Shown here in pieces: positions 26,064 through 55,041 of a stretch of 64,000 nt of DNA. The stretch comes from an uncultured Candidatus Saccharibacteria bacterium (GTDB lineage Bacteria; Patescibacteriota; Minisyncoccia; Phycocordibacterales; Zambryskibacteraceae), in contig CAYHDI010000001.1 in assembly GCA_964355645.1 (NCBI GenBank), positions 28,778 to 92,777 of the forward strand, written 5' to 3'. How positions within the stretch are numbered: position 1 is the first letter of the stretch; each line of letters opens with the position of its first letter. The position numbers and the translations under genes were made by a program. The notes beneath the pieces were generated by a model. It searched no databases, was not told where the DNA came from, and saw only the letters and a list, made by a program, of their open reading frames with translations.

Positions 26064-27137
26064 TTATGGCAAATCCCTAACAAATTTTTTATATCTATGA
26101 ATCAAACTTCGCATGCTTTGTGATTTTGTATGAGATAAATGGCCTAAATATGAAGAAAAGGATTGATTGAATTCTCCTTTTGTTGATTTTCCATTTTGTA
26201 AGTTATAAGTCATTTTTCCTAACTTTTTTTGTATTCTTTTTTTAGTTTTAGTTCTAGGCACAACGTGATAAGGCATTGCAACGGCTCCTAAAAAATCTAC
26301 ACCTTGGAGAAACGAACGGATACTAACCTTACTTGGATGTAATTCGAGCTTTAAATGTTCTATTAAAAACTTTTGTATAGGATAGATAAATAGATTCAAT
26401 TTTTCACGACTCGAATCAAGGATAACAAAATCATCGCAGTATCTAATGTAATTTTTACTTATTTTGGTTTTAATAAACCAATCAAACTTGTTCATGTATA
26501 CATTAGCGAAAAGCTGACTGGTAACATTACCGAGAGGTAAACCCTTCCCTGATATTTTATGAAAGGTATCAATTATCTTCGCCAATAAATCTAAGGTTTT
26601 CTTGCATTCAATTTTTTCTTTTAGGAGATTATTTAAAATATTGTGGTTAATTGAATCAAAAAACTTTCGTATATCACACTTGAGCGCATAGGTCTGACCT
26701 GTGTAGTTTCGACTGATTTTTCGAGACATTTTGACAAGTCTATCTATACCTGCATGAGTACCCTTGCCCGTTCTACTAGCATACGAATCAAAAATAAAAT
26801 CATTATCAAAAATTGGATACAAAACCTGATGGATGGCTTGATACAAAACCCTATCTCGAACTGAGGCTTTATGAATCTTTCTTGGTTTTGGATCACGAAT
26901 AGAAAAAGATGTATATCCATCACATGTCCATTGTCCTGAAATTAGTTCTTTTTGAAGCCCAAAAATGTTATTCTCAAGATTGAGAGAAAAATTTACAATA
27001 TCAAGTTTTTTGTTTTTGTTTTTTTTGAATTCTCGCCAAGCGAAAAATAAATTCTCGAGCGAAATAATTTTATGGAAAATACTTCTATCAAGACCCCCCC
27101 CCCCAACGGTATTTTGGTGGCTCCGATTATCGTTCAT
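26064..27137 (-). CDS. DGR-type reverse transcriptase (first ATG 27137; ORF track start 27143 is TTG)
   Basis: RT domains with LPLGNVTSQ (DGR-specific I/LGxxxSQ motif 4) and YCDDFVIL (YxDD); no maturase/endonuclease domains; N-terminal GGGG encoded by (G)11 tract. Confidence 0.88.
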   Translation of the reverse strand: MNDNRSHQNTVGGGGLDRSIFHKIISLENLFFAWREFKKNKNKKLDIVNFSLNLENNIFGLQKELISGQWTCDGYTSFSIRDPKPRKIHKASVRDRVLYQAIHQVLYPIFDNDFIFDSYASRTGKGTHAGIDRLVKMSRKISRNYTGQTYALKCDIRKFFDSINHNILNNLLKEKIECKKTLDLLAKIIDTFHKISGKGLPLGNVTSQLFANVYMNKFDWFIKTKISKNYIRYCDDFVILDSSREKLNLFIYPIQKFLIEHLKLELHPSKVSIRSFLQGVDFLGAVAMPYHVVPRTKTKKRIQKKLGKMTYNLQNGKSTKGEFNQSFSSYLGHLSHTKSQSMRSLIHRYKKFVRDLP

Positions 27138-27461
27138 GTGCAAAAATTATATCAGGAATTATACATAATCGCCGAACAAATTCCGAAGCGAGATAAGCTT
27201 GGCCTACATGCCGAGATTGAGAAAACTTGTATCAAAACACTCTCACTCTGTATTCAGGCATCACTGGCTTCTAAAGGTGACAAATTTTCTTTAATTCGTG
27301 ATATAAGAGTATTAATAGAAACAATGAAATACCTTATTCGCGTTTCTCATGAACTTTTAATCATTAATCAGAAAAAATATATTTCTTTGGAATCAAAACT
27401 GCAGGAAATTTCTAAGATGGCTAACGGGTGGGAGAGATATGCAACAAACAATCCCGCTTAA
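27072..27461 (+). CDS. avd: Avd-like accessory variability determinant (four-helix-bundle, TIGR02436-like), antisense to RT; possibly starts at GTG 27112
   Basis: IPKRDKLGL...KY...L.EI.KM.NGW pattern of Avd/four-helix-bundle family; (C)11 tract 27094-27104 in N-terminal codons. Confidence 0.7.
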   Translation: MENTSIKTPPPNGILVAPIIVHVQKLYQELYIIAEQIPKRDKLGLHAEIEKTCIKTLSLCIQASLASKGDKFSLIRDIRVLIETMKYLIRVSHELLIINQKKYISLESKLQEISKMANGWERYATNNPA

Positions 27462-27482
27462 GCGGGATTGTTGTAAAACTTC

Positions 27483-27590
27483 GGGAACCGAGGTTCGAAT
27501 TGCGATTCGTCGGAGCGTACCAGTTCACGTTCGACTTGTCGTCGTTCCAGTTCGCGTTCGGCACGTTGCCATTCGAATTGCGAGAACCTC
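27483..27590 (-). repeat. DGR1 template repeat (TR)
   Basis: 108-nt match to VR 27833-27940; ~17 of 18 differences at TR adenines (minus strand); TR ORF is Asn-rich. Confidence 0.85.
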
Positions 27591-27763
27591 CGTTGCTCTC
27601 CTCCGTCCGTATCACCGAAAGACGTTTGCCTTTCTGCGTTTATGAATTTCTCGCGGTACTCTCGAGCGTTGTGTTGAAGAAAGCAAGCAGTTTTGTTTTA
27701 TTGCGATAAATTGTTATTCAAAAGAATCAATTAAACAATCGCGTAAATATTATATATGAAAAT

Positions 27764-27790
27764 CCGCCAAGCACACGAGGTGCTTGGCGG
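27764..27790 (-). promoter_or_regulatory. GC hairpin CCGCCAAGCAC-ACGAG-GTGCTTGGCGG ~30 nt 3' of VR1, preceded by conserved TTATATGAAAATC; DGR homing-associated stem-loop candidate
   Basis: perfect 11-bp stem; equivalent motif+hairpin at DGR2. Confidence 0.6.
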
Positions 27791-27816
27791 AGGGTTAAAG
27801 AGAAAAGATGCAAGGT

Positions 27817-28524
27817 TTAGACACAAACCCTGCGGGAACCGAGGTGCGAATCGCGACTCGTCGGAGCGTACCAGCCCACGCCCGACTTGCCGCCGCCCCC
27901 GTACGCGCCCGGCACGTCGCCACTCGAATCGCGAGAACCTGAATTGAGTGTCCAGGTCTGGCGGTCGGGATGGTGGCCGTGCTTCAGGAAATACATCGCC
28001 GAGAACAGCGCGTACTCGAGATGAGTCGATGTCTTGATGCCCATCTCGGCGATTTGGTTCGCCGATTTGTTCATCAGATTCTCGTCCGGGGTTTCCGAGT
28101 CGAGCATCAGCACGACGTACGAATCATTCCCGGGATTGCGCTCGTCCTTGTGGGTCGGAATGGCAAGATCGAGGGAGTCGCTCGTGTACTTCCAACACGG
28201 GAAGAGTTTCTTCCGAGCTTGGAACACGTCCTCCTTCGGTTCGCCATTCGTCCACTCGACGAGCTCGCGCATCATGGGTACCGCGAGGTACTGCCGAGCA
28301 TCCGGGGCCCGCGGGATGAAAAGGTTCGAGAAGTCCAGGGCCTTGCCGAAGAGCTTTTCGTACAACACCGACATGAACGAAACGTCGATGTTGCTGTCAA
28401 CCACTTGCGTGGCGACAGCAACCTTCTTCACCAGAGCGTCCCGAAGACGCCGAGCGAGAAGCGAAGGATTGCTGATGTAGCGCTGTTGCTCCTTCGTTGT
28501 GAGAAGTGGCAACTGCGCGAGCAC
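27817..28524 (-). CDS. DGR1 target (variable) protein; VR at 27833-27940 encodes C-terminal CLec-like NSGSRDSSGDVPGAYGGGGKSGVGWYAPTSRDSHLGSRRV
   Basis: VR/TR pairing; GC-rich gene; no signal peptide evident. Confidence 0.8.
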   Translation of the reverse strand: MLAQLPLLTTKEQQRYISNPSLLARRLRDALVKKVAVATQVVDSNIDVSFMSVLYEKLFGKALDFSNLFIPRAPDARQYLAVPMMRELVEWTNGEPKEDVFQARKKLFPCWKYTSDSLDLAIPTHKDERNPGNDSYVVLMLDSETPDENLMNKSANQIAEMGIKTSTHLEYALFSAMYFLKHGHHPDRQTWTLNSGSRDSSGDVPGAYGGGGKSGVGWYAPTSRDSHLGSRRVCV

Positions 28525-28717
28525 AGCACCCCCCGAAGGTGAGCGTCTGCTTGTGGAGCTCGGGCGTGAATGGAGCTTTCCCAGCGCGTGGCATGGTTTC
28601 TTCTCCTCGTTGTAGATGTTCAGACAGAAGCTCAGGTGCTTCTTTGTCTAAGTCTGATTATATCACACTCTATTATAAAAAGCAAGTTTCCAAATGGTTC
28701 ACCACCTTGGAACCAAT

Positions 28718-50855: not shown

Positions 50856-51279
50856 ATTCAATACTCCTCGCATTATCTCCCAAGTGCCCAAAGAAAATTT
50901 TCTTCGCCTCGTTTGGAATAATTCCTTGCACTTTTTCTGGCCATTCAATGAGAATTAAATTCTCTGGTTCTTGAATTATTTCCTCCCAGCCCAAATGTAG
51001 AAGTTCTGAATCTTTTTCCAACCTATACGCATCAATATGAATCAAGTTTTTGAAACCTTGAAAATCAATCGGGTAAATTTTCTCTATTACAAATGTCGGG
51101 CTTTGCATTGTTTCCTTCACTCCTAAAAAACTTCCAACCGCTTGAGAAAACGCCGTCTTGCCCGAACCGAGCTCTCCAGCAAGCGCAACTACGACGGCTC
51201 GGTCCCCAGATTTTAATCCTTCTATAAACCCCCGTGCCACTTCGCCCGTCTCCTCCAGACTCTTAGAAATATGCTTCAT
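50845..51279 (-). CDS. tsaE: tRNA threonylcarbamoyladenosine biosynthesis ATPase TsaE
   Basis: GELGSGKT Walker A. Confidence 0.85.
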   Translation of the reverse strand: MKHISKSLEETGEVARGFIEGLKSGDRAVVVALAGELGSGKTAFSQAVGSFLGVKETMQSPTFVIEKIYPIDFQGFKNLIHIDAYRLEKDSELLHLGWEEIIQEPENLILIEWPEKVQGIIPNEAKKIFFGHLGDNARSIEYED

Positions 51280-51698
51280 TTCTCTATTGTACCATTTTGA
51301 GCTTCTGGTGCTCTAAGGATTGTTTGAGTAAGTTTATTTGTATTCCCGTGTTTCAACAGCCCTAAATAGGACTGGGTGGTTTCTTGGTTATTTTGGCTAT
51401 CTTTGAGTCTTTTAAACATTCTATTTTTTGTACTAGTTCTCAAAATTCTATAATCAGAAAAATGTACCCACCCCAGAAAATCAATACCTGAAACTAGGGT
51501 TTTAATGGAAACTTTGTTTGGATGTAATTCAAGTTTAAGAATCTGGTTTAGATAACATACGATATATCGCATGTTAAGCATAAGATAATTTTTGTTTTGA
51601 AAGAACTTTCGCACATCACATTTCAATACCCAACATTGTTTTGTGTTGTTCTTGGAAACTTTGTATGAAAATTCTCTAAACCTGTTCATATGATACAT
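51276..51698 (-). pseudogene. degenerate DGR reverse transcriptase remnant (140 aa; lacks domains 1-2 and motifs 4/5 incl. YxDD)
   Basis: N-terminus ~RT1 FAWREFKK fused to ALKCDIRKFF region; C-terminus ~RT1 thumb (LELHPNKVSI...GIDFLGW). Confidence 0.7.
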
Positions 51699-52076
51699 AA
51701 TATCGCGACCCCCCCCCCCGCAAAAGCACCCGAGGTGCTTTTTAAGGGAAGAGCAACTTATAAATATTGGCTTCAGTTATATAAACAATTTCGGAAACCA
51801 GAACGTTTTGGACTCGGTGAAAAAATAGATACACTGTTTCTAGAGGTATTAGAACTTATCTATACAGCAATCTATTTAGAAACATCAGCGAAAATACCAA
51901 AACTTGAGCTCGCTATTCTTAAATTAGACAGAATAAAATTGTTCTCTGAAATTGCTTGGGAAAATAAACTGATACTCACAGATAAATACACTCTTTTTCT
52001 AACACAACTTCAAGAAATCGGCAGGCAACTTTCCGGTTGGAAGAAAAGTTTGATAACAAAAACTTCCACCCTATAA
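51690..52076 (+). CDS. avd: Avd-like four-helix-bundle protein (paralog of 27072-27461), (C)11 at 51709-51719
   Basis: RKPERFGL...KY...L.EI....SGW pattern; ATG overlaps RT-remnant ATG in CATATGATACATATG. Confidence 0.7.
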   Translation: MIHNIATPPPAKAPEVLFKGRATYKYWLQLYKQFRKPERFGLGEKIDTLFLEVLELIYTAIYLETSAKIPKLELAILKLDRIKLFSEIAWENKLILTDKYTLFLTQLQEIGRQLSGWKKSLITKTSTL

Positions 52077-52100
52077 AAAGCGGAAGAAAATATATAGTTT

Positions 52101-52210
52101 CGGAAAAGTACCACGTTCTCGGCATTCCAACGATTCGAGTTCTCGAGCTTGTTGACGTTCACGTTCCAGCCATTCGAGTTCCGGTTCACGTTGAGAAAGA
52201 ACACTGACGC
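52101..52210 (-). repeat. DGR2 template repeat (TR)
   Basis: 110-nt match to VR 52491-52600 with ~26 differences, all but one at TR adenines (minus strand); Asn-rich TR ORF. Confidence 0.85.
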
Positions 52211-52412
52211 TTTTGTACAACAAGCCATCTATGCCACTACCCCTTGATCACTCTCGAGGTTGTATCGTATTCGGAATCTCTATTCCTTAGTTTGTTATAC
52301 CAACTGTTTATTTTTTTGTGAGTCGTGACTTACGACTCGAGCCCACCACACTAAGCGTAACAGCGAAGTGTGCCAGTGTAGCCTGATTTTATTATATGAA
52401 AATCGGGTGACT

Positions 52413-52438
52413 CTTGCGAGTCACCCGAGTAGTTTTGT
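52413..52438 (-). promoter_or_regulatory. GC hairpin TCGGGTGACTC-TTGC-GAGTCACCCGA preceded by TTATATGAAAATC, ~45 nt 3' of target2 stop
   Basis: perfect 11-bp stem; same arrangement as DGR1. Confidence 0.6.
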
Positions 52439-52483
52439 TTCTGGCCCAGATCAGAAGTGACCAAGGGTCAAAGAGACAGAGGT

Positions 52484-53143
52484 TCAGTTGCGGAAAAGTA
52501 CCACGCCCCCGGCACGCCAACGATTCGAGAACTCGAGCCTGAGGACGAACACGCGCCAGCCAAGCGAGCGCAGGTACACGTCGAGAAAGAACACCGACGC
52601 TCCATCGAAGATGGGAACCAAGTTCGCCCAACCGTCCGTGCGGAGGTGGAAGGGGTTCTCACCCCGGTCACAAGCAACGAGCATGTCGTCGACCTGCTTG
52701 GGAGAGAAACACTTGCCACACTCGACGAGCGTCCCCGCGACAAGATCGAGATTCTTCTCGATGCCGAGGTGCTCGACGGACATCTCAATGAAGTTCATCT
52801 CTGCACCGAGCTGGTAACTCGACGCACGACCTTCGATCATCGCCGGCACGGACTTCCGAAGCCAGTTGTCTAGATCTCCATCACGGTAAACGATGTGCTT
52901 ACCGCGGAAGAGATCCTTGGTCTTGCACTCGCCGACTGCTTGTACGGTGATGTTCGTGGCGAGAGCGATGAGGCTGGCAACGACTGCCTTGAAGCGGTTC
53001 TTGATCGCCTCACCCCAAAGTCTGATGGCTTCGACGGTATTCTGAATCGCCCACTGTGCATCCTCATTCGAGAACTCACGGATGGACGACTGGTGTTCGA
53101 CCACGAGGCCAGCGAGCTTGTACTGCTGTTGTTCGGTTGCCAT
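52484..53143 (-). CDS. DGR2 target protein; VR 52491-52600 at C-terminus (...NRWRAGGVVLFRN)
   Basis: VR/TR pairing; GC-rich. Confidence 0.8.
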   Translation of the reverse strand: MATEQQQYKLAGLVVEHQSSIREFSNEDAQWAIQNTVEAIRLWGEAIKNRFKAVVASLIALATNITVQAVGECKTKDLFRGKHIVYRDGDLDNWLRKSVPAMIEGRASSYQLGAEMNFIEMSVEHLGIEKNLDLVAGTLVECGKCFSPKQVDDMLVACDRGENPFHLRTDGWANLVPIFDGASVFFLDVYLRSLGWRVFVLRLEFSNRWRAGGVVLFRN

Positions 53144-53358
53144 TGTAGGCGTCTCCGTTTTTACAGCATGAATGCCAGAGGACTACCGGATTGGTAGTCA
53201 TAGCCAGAAAATGCCTAGAATTAAGCACCTTTTGGCTATGACCACCTGCAAGTTAAATTTGAAGGAACTTACTGCCCTCTATTATACACATAATTAGTAT
53301 CCTGTCAAGTTTAGAAAAATAAGCTTAAATTTAGAGCTCTTTAGAGTATAATTAAAAA

Positions 53359-55041
53359 ATGTTAATTTTCGATGAAGAAAAGGAAAAAGGGAAAGTGGAA
53401 ACACTCCTTAGACAAGAAGAAGAAAACTTGGCTTCGACTCTTTCGGCCAAATATGGTGTGCCGTACATTGACCTTTCGACTCATCCTATAAACATTGATG
53501 CTCTTCGAATAATTAAAGAAGCAGACGCGCGGGCTTCGGATACGGCGGCCTTTAATATCACAGACAAAAAAATAGATGTGGCGGTTCTTTCGCCTGCAAA
53601 CGAGAAGACTCTTCAAACCATGGAAGATTTGAAAGGTCGAGGATTTATTCCTCAGATGTATATGGTCTCGCACGCTTCTCTAAACAAAGTGTGGGACAGG
53701 TACAAGGATTTGTCTTATTCCTCAGAAACAAGTTCAGGCGCTTTGGATATTTCAAACGAAGACATTCTCGAAATGATGAAGAAGGTCGAGACCCTTGAAG
53801 ATGTGAAGAAACTCATCGAAGGAGTGCTTTCGATGAAACGCGCCTATAGAATTTCAAAAATTCTTGAAATAATTCTCGCCGGTGGTATCGCTCTCAAGGC
53901 CTCGGACATTCATATCGAACCGGAAGAAATCGCGGTCCGATTGCGCTATAGACTCGACGGCGTGCTCACAGATATTTTGAAATTTGATAAGGAAACCTTC
54001 GAACTTTTGCTCTCGAGAGTAAAATTGATTTCAAATTTGAAATTAAATACCAAGGCTCGAGCCCAAGACGGACGCTTCTCTATTAAACTCAAAGACACCG
54101 AAATTGAAATTCGTACTTCCCTCCTGCCTGGACCATACGATGAGTCCGTCGTGCTTCGTATCCTCACTCCGGAAGCCATCTCCGTACCTCTCGAGGAACT
54201 CGGCATTCATCCTCGACTGCTTGAAGTCTTGAAGAAAGAAATAACCAAACCGAACGGCATGATTCTCACCACTGGACCAACCGGTTCAGGAAAAACAACA
54301 ACTCTCTACGCCTTCCTGCGCAAAATTTATACTCCAGATATAAAAGTGATTACTATAGAAAATCCGATTGAATATCACATTAAAGGAATTGTTCAAACTC
54401 AAACGGATGAAGCGGGAGACTATACTTTCGCTTCAGGACTCAGAAGTGCTTTGCGCCAGGACCCCGACGTCATCATGGTTGGAGAAATTAGAGACAATGA
54501 GACGGCTGAGGTGGCGGTGAACGCTGCGCTCACCGGACACCTTGTGCTCTCAACTCTACACACGAATAACGCCGCGGGTTCATTCCCTCGTCTCTTGGAC
54601 CTCGGAGTAAATCCAAAAGTTATTTCTTCGGCTTTAAATGTTTCTATCGCCCAAAGATTGGTGAGGAAACTTTGTCCGGTTTGCAAAAAAGAAAAAATAT
54701 TAATCGGCAAGGATAAAGATTTGATTGAAAGAGTTATTTCTGAAATCCCTGATACAAGCTATCTCGAAGGAATTCAGAAAGAAAAAGTTTGGGAACCGGT
54801 GGGTTGTAAGGAGTGCAACAACCTAGGCTTCAAAGGCAGAATAGGTGTCTACGAAGCCATACAAATTGACAACACCATAGAGAAAGCGGTCATCGAAAAC
54901 CCGAGCGAGCGCGACATCGTCCTCGCGGCCAAACCACAGAAACTTTTGAATTTGGTGGAAGATGGAATTTTGAAAGTTCTCGCAGGAGTCACTTCAATCC
55001 CCGAACTCGAACGCGTCGTAGACCTTTCAAGAACAGAATAA
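53359..55041 (+). CDS. pilB: type IV pilus / type II secretion ATPase (PilB/GspE family)
   Basis: GSPII_E N-domain, Walker A GPTGSGKTTTL, Asp box, His box, tetracysteine motif. Confidence 0.9.
   Translation: MLIFDEEKEKGKVETLLRQEEENLASTLSAKYGVPYIDLSTHPINIDALRIIKEADARASDTAAFNITDKKIDVAVLSPANEKTLQTMEDLKGRGFIPQMYMVSHASLNKVWDRYKDLSYSSETSSGALDISNEDILEMMKKVETLEDVKKLIEGVLSMKRAYRISKILEIILAGGIALKASDIHIEPEEIAVRLRYRLDGVLTDILKFDKETFELLLSRVKLISNLKLNTKARAQDGRFSIKLKDTEIEIRTSLLPGPYDESVVLRILTPEAISVPLEELGIHPRLLEVLKKEITKPNGMILTTGPTGSGKTTTLYAFLRKIYTPDIKVITIENPIEYHIKGIVQTQTDEAGDYTFASGLRSALRQDPDVIMVGEIRDNETAEVAVNAALTGHLVLSTLHTNNAAGSFPRLLDLGVNPKVISSALNVSIAQRLVRKLCPVCKKEKILIGKDKDLIERVISEIPDTSYLEGIQKEKVWEPVGCKECNNLGFKGRIGVYEAIQIDNTIEKAVIENPSERDIVLAAKPQKLLNLVEDGILKVLAGVTSIPELERVVDLSRTE

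Follow-up and report, generated by a model that had tools for sequence, protein, structure and literature searches.

A diversity-generating retroelement cassette with a remnant reverse transcriptase beside a complete element in a groundwater Patescibacteria genome: probable recent inactivation

Can a diversity-generating retroelement (DGR) go on diversifying its target gene once its own polymerase has been lost? The question is raised by a 64,000-nucleotide (nt) stretch of contig CAYHDI010000001.1 from an uncultured Candidatus Saccharibacteria bacterium (the whole of this stretch is called the window; GC content 41.5%), which carries a complete DGR (DGR1) and a second locus (DGR2) whose reverse transcriptase (RT) gene is reduced to a short open reading frame (ORF). 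A reading made from the sequence alone had proposed that the RT of DGR1 (RT1) could serve DGR2 in trans. The analysis described here points, with a rough probability of 0.68, to a recently inactivated DGR with a frozen variable repeat (VR), and DGR2 is filed as a DGR-derived non-autonomous cassette and not as a functional DGR because the catalytic RT core (motifs 1-7, with YxDD) is missing and was lost secondarily. The window is identical or near-identical to contigs from Hainich groundwater well H52, including a 189-kb contig of ENA ERZ1292618 and contigs of the Logan assemblies of SRR32696699, ERR3858110, and others, and the records of related proteins and loci carry Patescibacteria or Parcubacteria names.

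That DGR2 is a genuine second DGR cassette, as the sequence-only reading had held, is borne out by the adenine pattern of its template repeat (TR) and VR, by the position of the VR in the 3' end of a target gene, and by the presence of an Avd gene. The repeats and the target gene are located as follows:
52096..52212, minus strand: TR2, the template repeat, with 33 minus-strand adenines, identical at 111-113 of 117 nt to the TRs of orthologous cassettes
52486..52602, minus strand: VR2, the variable repeat, which makes up the last 39 codons (3' end) of the target ORF 52484-53143
52484..53143, minus strand: the DGR2 target gene, encoding a variable protein of 219 amino acids (aa); GC content at third codon positions (GC3) 0.73 in a genome of ~41% GC

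TR2 and VR2 have a repeat length of 117 nt and stand in register at an offset of 390 nt. They differ by 24 mismatches, 23 of which fall on the 33 TR adenines (hypergeometric P = 1.4e-15); about 26 differences, all but one at adenines, had been counted before, and the adenine pattern stands while the count is corrected to 24 (22 within the earlier bounds 52101-52210 and 52491-52600). Codon positions 1-2 hold 23 of the 24 mismatches, and TR2 read in the VR frame contains nine AAC and three AAT codons. The sole non-adenine mismatch is a G>T, with CTG in VR2 and CGG in TR2 (Arg>Leu), and this CTG has no counterpart among the orthologous TRs and VRs, all of which read CGG; the four orthologous elements have no non-adenine TR/VR mismatch in 84 non-adenine sites each, as against one in DGR2. 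Two TR2-specific non-adenine changes (CTTTCTC for CTTCCTC and GCCGAG for GTCGAG in the orthologous TRs) are also present in VR2, and since they are mirrored there, transfer from TR to VR went on after the split from the nearest known relative (88% nt identity), so that the mutagenic homing previously proposed for the past of this locus is supported. No further copy of TR1 or TR2 occurs within the window.

Close homologues of the target protein share 82, 71, and 67% identity with it, and its orthologs (P0122-P0124) differ from it chiefly at VR-encoded positions, where exactly the adenine-templated residues vary. No Pfam or NCBIfam domain was found in it, a PDB profile search returned nothing below E = 0.5, and its AlphaFold2 model, with a mean predicted local distance difference test score (pLDDT) of 43.7, is unusable for assignment to a C-type lectin or immunoglobulin fold.

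The RT gene of DGR2 is represented by the following features:
51276..51698, minus strand: the RT2 remnant, 140 aa, which keeps the start MYHM, motif 3, motifs 6-7, and the thumb
~51686/51687, minus strand: deletion junction 1 (CATATG/AAC), where 330 nt (110 codons) were lost and the start MYHM was kept
~51600/51601, minus strand: deletion junction 2 (GTTCTT/TCAAAAC), where ~243 nt (~81 codons), including YADD, were lost

The two deletions keep the reading frame, are located at short direct repeats, and took motifs 1-2 and 4-5 (YADD) with them. Aligned to RT1 or to intact relatives, the remnant shows two blocks only, the first being motif 3 (LKCDVRKFF) and the second motifs 6-7 with the thumb; similarly, a tblastn search with the intact RT of an orthologous cassette (L014) returned residues 115-146 and 228-314 at DGR2, together with RT1. 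Pfam RVT_1 does not match the remnant (RT1 scores 87 bits), and its sole NCBIfam match is a weak one, to the thumb of group II RT/maturases. The earlier description of an RT ORF without finger domains and without motifs 4-5 and YxDD thus holds, and judged by the motifs it retains, the ORF is a catalytically dead remnant. A hidden RT restored by frameshift correction, which had been named as the finding that would overturn this view (a corrected 51276-51700 with YxDD), is ruled out: an all-frame tblastn of the locus and of the whole window gave the two known blocks only, and no correction can restore a full RT because only ~410 nt lie between avd2 and tsaE. No other RT fragment was found in the 64-kb window by tblastn with RT1 and with the intact orthologous RT. 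The stop codon of the remnant overlaps the start of tsaE (ATGA). Gene callers start the 140-aa ORF at Met40, and an exact look-up of the full ORF had no match, with P0001 being retrieved instead. Short RT2-like proteins (245 aa or less, many starting with MNRFR) were considered as a family of split or short RTs and rejected; because one such locus (L011) holds a full 325-aa ORF, the short entries reflect gene calls that start at an internal Met, together with a length limit of the search.

Cassettes of the DGR2 type are found on three contigs identified through target homologues (L014, L015, and L016) and on two Joint Genome Institute (JGI) contigs identified through the conserved leader (L017/L018). 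Window positions 53185-51690, which cover the target gene, VR, leader, TR, avd, poly-G tract, and RT start, are collinear with L015, L014, and L016 at 88, 85, and 81% nt identity. In L014, L016, and L017/L018 an intact RT of 321-342 aa follows; the contig of L015 stops at the poly-G tract, short of the RT. The 140-aa ORF of the window is derived, because every lineage whose contig reaches the RT has an intact one. The same type of cassette occurs in four chromosomal contexts (pilM/pilO, RNase H/ComEC, glycosyltransferase/FtsW, and tsaE/pilB). The target genes of L014 and L018 are 99% identical outside the VR and their VRs differ, and the nt identity of their RT genes drops from 98 to 59% from 5' to 3'; because the two share a target and yet diverge along the RT, RT segments recombine between cassettes. 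A swap of the RT module at the poly-G tract between L011 and L014 was also considered and rejected, the RTs being only ~73% identical, and the L014/L018 mosaic alone is solid. Cassettes or parts of cassettes are exchanged by recombination, often beside type IV pilus genes.

How long ago the RT was lost bears directly on the meaning of the intact remainder, of which the accessory gene is the main coding part:
51690..52076, plus strand: the avd2 ORF (128 aa), lying on the other strand from TR, VR, and RT; the orthologs suggest a GTG start at 51735

The product matches Pfam bAvd at 41.3 bits (cutoff 40) and NCBIfam DivGenRetAVD at E 3.5e-16 and 59 bits, which is below the curated cutoff of 80, and shares >90% identity with its counterparts in orthologous complete DGRs. 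Age was estimated from Nei-Gojobori distances by three-taxon branch decomposition. On the window branch, avd2 has a nonsynonymous distance (dN) of 0.003-0.008 and a synonymous distance (dS) of 0.12-0.36 (omega ~0.02), and the retained RT2 blocks have a dN of 0.055-0.068, no higher than that of intact-RT branches (~0.08), with dS saturated or near 0.9; the target gene outside the VR has an omega of ~0.2 everywhere. Because avd2 and the retained RT blocks show no relaxed constraint, any neutral period since the deletions is a negligible fraction of the branch, and as the rest of the cassette has not begun to decay, the loss of RT2 is, by these distances, recent. The sole hints of wear in the cassette are a new stop codon in avd2, which removes the C-terminal 8 aa present in the orthologs, and the one non-adenine mismatch of VR2. 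The dS of avd is about half that of the target gene in the same cassettes (0.36-0.69 vs. 0.74-1.36, for 51735-52076 and its orthologs), which suggests extra constraint on the avd DNA or on an antisense RNA between TR and RT.

The history of the locus would then have run as follows. Its own RT2 would have copied TR2 RNA into adenine-mutagenized cDNA that replaced VR2, until two in-frame deletions at the short direct repeats removed the fingers (motifs 1-2) and palm motifs 4-5 with YADD. This left a dead remnant of 140 aa in a cassette that is now non-autonomous and that most likely diversifies no longer, with VR2 frozen as of the last homing event.

Any judgment on the present state of DGR2 depends on comparison with DGR1, a complete element and the proposed donor in trans, which has the same layout:
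26064..28524, minus strand: DGR1, complete element
26064-27143, minus strand: RT1, ~24 kb from DGR2, with an RVT_1 match of 87 bits
27072-27461, plus strand: avd1
27094-27104: C11 tract of DGR1
27479-27589: TR1
27830-27940: VR1
27817-28524, minus strand: target1

TR1 and VR1 differ by 19 mismatches, 18 of them at adenines and one at a non-adenine. That TR1 and TR2 are different sequences, as had been noted, is confirmed by the lack of any cross-match between them. A contig from Hainich well H43 (L019, ENA ERZ1292632), compared with window positions 27857-28683, carries a second VR1 allele in a background that is 99.4% identical, with 4 substitutions and 1 indel in ~740 nt outside VR1 as against 20 differences within it, 17 of them at TR1 adenines and mostly A>T. 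Because the VR1 of this contig differs at TR1 adenines, DGR1 has diversified between near-identical strains, and this is direct evidence that it was recently active in this population. Homologues of target1 (P0132, P0134, and P0144) have ~38 extra N-terminal residues (MPRAGKAP...), and a 1-nt indel at 28534 between the window and L019 puts this N-terminal extension out of frame and leaves an ORF with a GTG start; it may be a true frameshift of the DGR1 target or else an error of assembly.

GC3 is high along the whole length of both DGR target genes (52484-53143 and 27817-28524; 0.73-0.76) and in the orthologs of the DGR2 target (0.66-0.76; L014:3222-3881, L016:672-1331, and L018:6231-6890), as compared with 0.2-0.35 in the adjacent RT and avd genes and 0.37-0.52 in host genes. 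Because this split between the target and the RT and avd genes persists across lineages with saturated synonymous divergence, it is maintained and is not a signal of recent transfer.

Comparisons of the VRs were made between consensus assemblies. At this level VR2 does not vary, the exact target protein and VR2 being identical on 12 contigs from at least nine runs, with the 90% cluster having a single member and partial or noisy contigs carrying the same VR2. VR2 invariance, which the sequence-only reading had named as a finding that would count against its proposal, therefore stands for the consensus, and it has little power, because VR1 and TR1 are equally invariant in six assemblies from the same well and a same-well comparison of two invariant VRs is uninformative. 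The contrast between a second VR1 allele and a single VR2 is suggestive, being one across strains in which the H43 strain has no matched DGR2 contig. One low-coverage contig (L004, ENA ERZ1292622, coverage 2x) has a single T>C relative to window position 52158, which lies inside TR2 at a minus-strand adenine and could be a TR variant or an error in sequencing. The spectrum of adenine changes differs between the two elements (15 G, 2 C, and 1 T in VR1; 10 G, 6 C, and 7 T in VR2; Fisher P = 0.012), and its use as a fingerprint of the RT was rejected, since the VR1 of L019 changed mostly A>T and L015, which has a DGR2-type template, has A>G in 14 of 17.

We infer, and do not observe, that DGR2 is inactive at present, and several points weigh against a frozen VR2. 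The VR comparison is of little power for the reason just given. The Arg>Leu mismatch of VR2 would fit drift since the last homing event, as weak evidence, and intact DGR1 has one non-adenine mismatch as well. In addition, an intact avd2, TR2, leader, set of hairpins, and promoter would also be expected if a foreign RT served the cassette, and so would two in-frame deletions that keep the ORF open.

DGR2 belongs to the Patescibacteria type of DGR, and its order on one strand is the target gene with VR, a hairpin, the leader, TR, and a second hairpin, followed by the inverted avd, the poly-G tract, and the RT. The non-coding features of the cassette are the following:
53281..53308, minus strand: promoter-like site upstream of the target gene (TTGACA, 16-nt spacer, TATAAT; 12 of 12 matches)
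52486..52502, minus strand: VR2 3' boundary resembling an initiation of mutagenic homing (IMH) element, GGTACTTTTCCG-C-AACT, a reading of the sequence with the function inferred
52403..52428, minus strand: GC-rich hairpin of 11 bp with a GCAA loop, followed by TTTTCATATAAT, in the position of a DGR post-IMH inverted repeat or a target-gene terminator
52213..52402, minus strand: non-coding leader of 190 nt between the VR hairpin and TR2, conserved above the flanking genes
52063..52086, minus strand: terminator-like hairpin and U-tract directly 3' of TR2, spanning the avd2 stop codon
51709..51719: C11/G11 homopolymer at the divergent RT/avd junction, 10-12 nt long among assemblies of the same population

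Both promoter boxes, TTGACA and TATA(A/C)T, are kept in the orthologs L014, L015, and L016. At the repeat boundary, the TR copy (52096-52112) has A in place of the C of the VR, and this difference is found in all five DGR2-type loci and in DGR1 (VR1 TTCCCG-C-AG; TR1 TTCCCG-A-AG). The post-VR2 hairpin lies ~58 nt downstream of VR2, its stem-closing pair covaries between CG and UA, and a TATAAT box at 52391-52396 is overlapped by the hairpin and U-tract; its DGR1 counterpart is a hairpin with a GATTTTCATATA motif at 27763-27791. The leader and TR are ~92-95% conserved among lineages whose target genes have a dS of 0.45-1.4 (the leader ~95% in five lineages), and RNAalifold predicts a 12-bp helix (GTATAACAAACT with GGYTTGTTGTAC) that abuts the TR upstream, with compensatory change in five pairs. 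The leader is a candidate for a structured 5' portion of the TR RNA. No relevant Rfam family was found in 51000-53400, and neither viral contigs nor GTDB species representatives gave a match in scans with leader motifs. Proper pairing of the post-TR hairpin is confined to minus-strand RNA, where one pair is U.G, G.U, or C-G depending on the lineage. A discrete template RNA composed of leader, TR, and 3' hairpin is suggested by the conservation of leader and TR, the predicted helix, and this minus-strand-only pairing.

The homopolymer at the RT/avd junction is one of only two G/C homopolymers of at least 8 nt in the window, the other being the C11 tract of DGR1 at 27094-27104, and a tract of 9-12 nt stands at the same position in related DGRs (L011:497, L014:4648, L016:2111, L018:5454, L035:5474, and L040:5011). 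Contigs break or show N-gaps at this tract. The DGR1 tract lies inside the RT1 ORF, with no ATG between it and the conserved N-terminus. Slipped-strand events at such a tract may switch RT or Avd on and off, or the length differences may be an Illumina artefact at a conserved element. Beside it, within the annotated N-terminal extension of avd2, lies a hairpin (AAAAGCACC-CGA-GGTGCTTTT, 51722-51742); L014 and L016 keep its stem and vary in its loop, and the post-VR hairpin of DGR1 (27763-27791) is formed by a 17-mer almost identical to it (AAGCACCTCGTGTGCTT).

Among the alternatives to a frozen DGR2, the one that survives best, and that nevertheless appears unlikely, is a non-autonomous cassette that is still active, in which RT1, with Avd2 or Avd1, reverse-transcribes TR2 RNA and diversifies VR2. 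In its favor, all parts other than the RT are intact and strongly constrained on the window branch, the pairing of the post-TR hairpin was kept through a double change from U.G to G.U, and DGR1 is demonstrably active in the population. DGR1 and DGR2 also have the same unusual architecture, with a common TTYCCG-(A in TR, C in VR)-A boundary, a hairpin with GATTTTCATATA, the motif TCTCTTTRACCCT, and a poly-G tract at the RT start; RT segments are exchanged between cassettes in nature (L014/L018), and action in trans on remote targets has been documented in other work (PMC10907252). The documented trans cases, however, consist of one TR for several VRs and not of one RT for a foreign TR and Avd, and the two elements are far apart in their working parts: Avd1 and Avd2 are 24% identical, RT1 and the DGR2-type RT 49.5%, and, short motifs apart, neither the 190-nt TR leader nor the antisense-avd region of the one is related to that of the other. 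No VR2 variant is found in any public assembly, and VR2 carries a non-adenine mismatch of a kind absent from the four orthologous elements. The proposed service by RT1 thus finds no support here, as no result requires it and recent deletion explains the lack of decay equally well without such an assumption.

Slightly less probable again, and compatible both with a frozen DGR2 and with service by RT1, is that the 140-aa ORF has been kept for a role of its own, as a translated leader coupled to tsaE/polA or as a thumb fragment that binds RNA or Avd. Neither deletion breaks the frame and the original start codon is retained, the stop codon overlaps the tsaE start, and no conserved residue of motif 3, motifs 6-7, or the thumb has changed. 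Two in-frame deletions are, however, expected by chance in ~1/9 of cases, recency alone accounts for the intact residues, and tsaE is downstream of the RT in no ortholog.

A polymorphic population, in which some cells with an intact RT2 diversify VR2 in cis and the consensus shows the deleted allele, is improbable. Its precedent is the Thiohalocapsa DGR 3 and DGR 7 (PMC10907252), and short-read consensus assemblies can mask minor structural variants. The deleted form is nevertheless present in all five independent assemblies that span the remnant (ENA and Logan, several runs), no intact or near-identical full-length RT2 was found among these five or by exact-sequence and homology searches, and the closest intact RTs lie in other genomic contexts at only ~75-85% nt identity. 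One contig that seemed to be a shorter structural variant (L020) was rejected, being the same sequence with many small deletions at a coverage of 1.6x. Finally, a mis-assembly or chance repeat in place of a DGR is effectively refuted, for although short-read assemblies do break at the poly-G tracts and TR/VR repeats of these loci, independent assemblies of several runs, from ENA and from Logan, give the identical structure, five other lineages are collinear with it, and its adenine specificity has a P of 1.4e-15.

A recently inactivated DGR2 can be set beside systems that are already known. Like the prototype, the DGR of Bordetella phage BPP-1 (mtd-avd-TR-brt), DGR2 has adenine-specific transfer from TR to VR, an Avd, a VR that closes the target ORF at its 3' end, AAC-rich TR codons, a GC-rich hairpin downstream of the VR, and a difference at the 3' boundary that distinguishes TR from VR and resembles that between IMH and IMH*. 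Unlike BPP-1, it has avd inverted between TR and RT, a poly-G tract at the RT start, an IMH-like segment that is not GC-rich, a dead RT remnant, and a conserved 190-nt leader 5' of the TR, where BPP-1 has the Sp spacer 3' of the TR; the candidate template RNA would resemble the BPP-1 TR-Sp RNA in role, with the conserved non-coding part at its 5' end (PMC6182149). DGR2 shares host group and groundwater habitat with the DGRs described from candidate phyla radiation (CPR)/Patescibacteria and DPANN groundwater genomes, as well as small targets without recognizable domains and the occurrence of several DGRs per small genome (PMC5758913).

Incomplete DGR loci are already known, and DGR2 is a new and unusually clean example. 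For instance, Thiohalocapsa PB-PSB1 has several DGRs per genome, some at loci with a disrupted or deleted RT, and its authors asked whether the VRs were diversified in trans or before the disruption (PMC10907252). There the RT was disrupted by transposons and arrays resembling MITEs (small transposable elements with inverted repeats), the trans cases share the TR of a complete DGR, and diversity was measured at the read level (PMC10907252), whereas DGR2 has two clean in-frame deletions, its own TR and Avd that are both unrelated to those of DGR1, and diversity assessed at the level of consensus assemblies. Similar RT remnants with internal deletions were found in other Patescibacteria (P0069, P0107, P0019, and L039), and RT decay in DGRs of this group seems, from these remnants, to be recurrent. 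The RT-derived ORFs of these other Patescibacteria, with L039:2379-2543 and L031:5538-5984 among them, have different internal or terminal deletions, examples being ORFs without motifs 4-5 or with no more than the last 55 aa, beside a VR-like fragment.

DGR2 also offers a ready natural test of the specificity between RT and template, as variation of VR2 at adenine sites would show cross-service between unrelated DGRs, of which we know of no demonstration so far. If RT1 did act in trans, the DGR RTs of Patescibacteria would be promiscuous enough to serve several unrelated template cassettes in streamlined genomes. Studies of how the template RNA of this DGR type arises and is primed could take its conserved non-coding parts (leader, post-TR hairpin, and poly-G tract) as a guide. 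As it stands, DGR2 shows cleanly how DGR decay begins in nature, with the polymerase gone and the rest untouched, beside a working DGR in the same small genome. The survey pipelines applied to the CPR set start from an intact RT, so that a DGR2-type cassette would go unlisted, and because RT-centered surveys miss cassettes without an RT, DGR-shaped genes in CPR genomes are probably undercounted.

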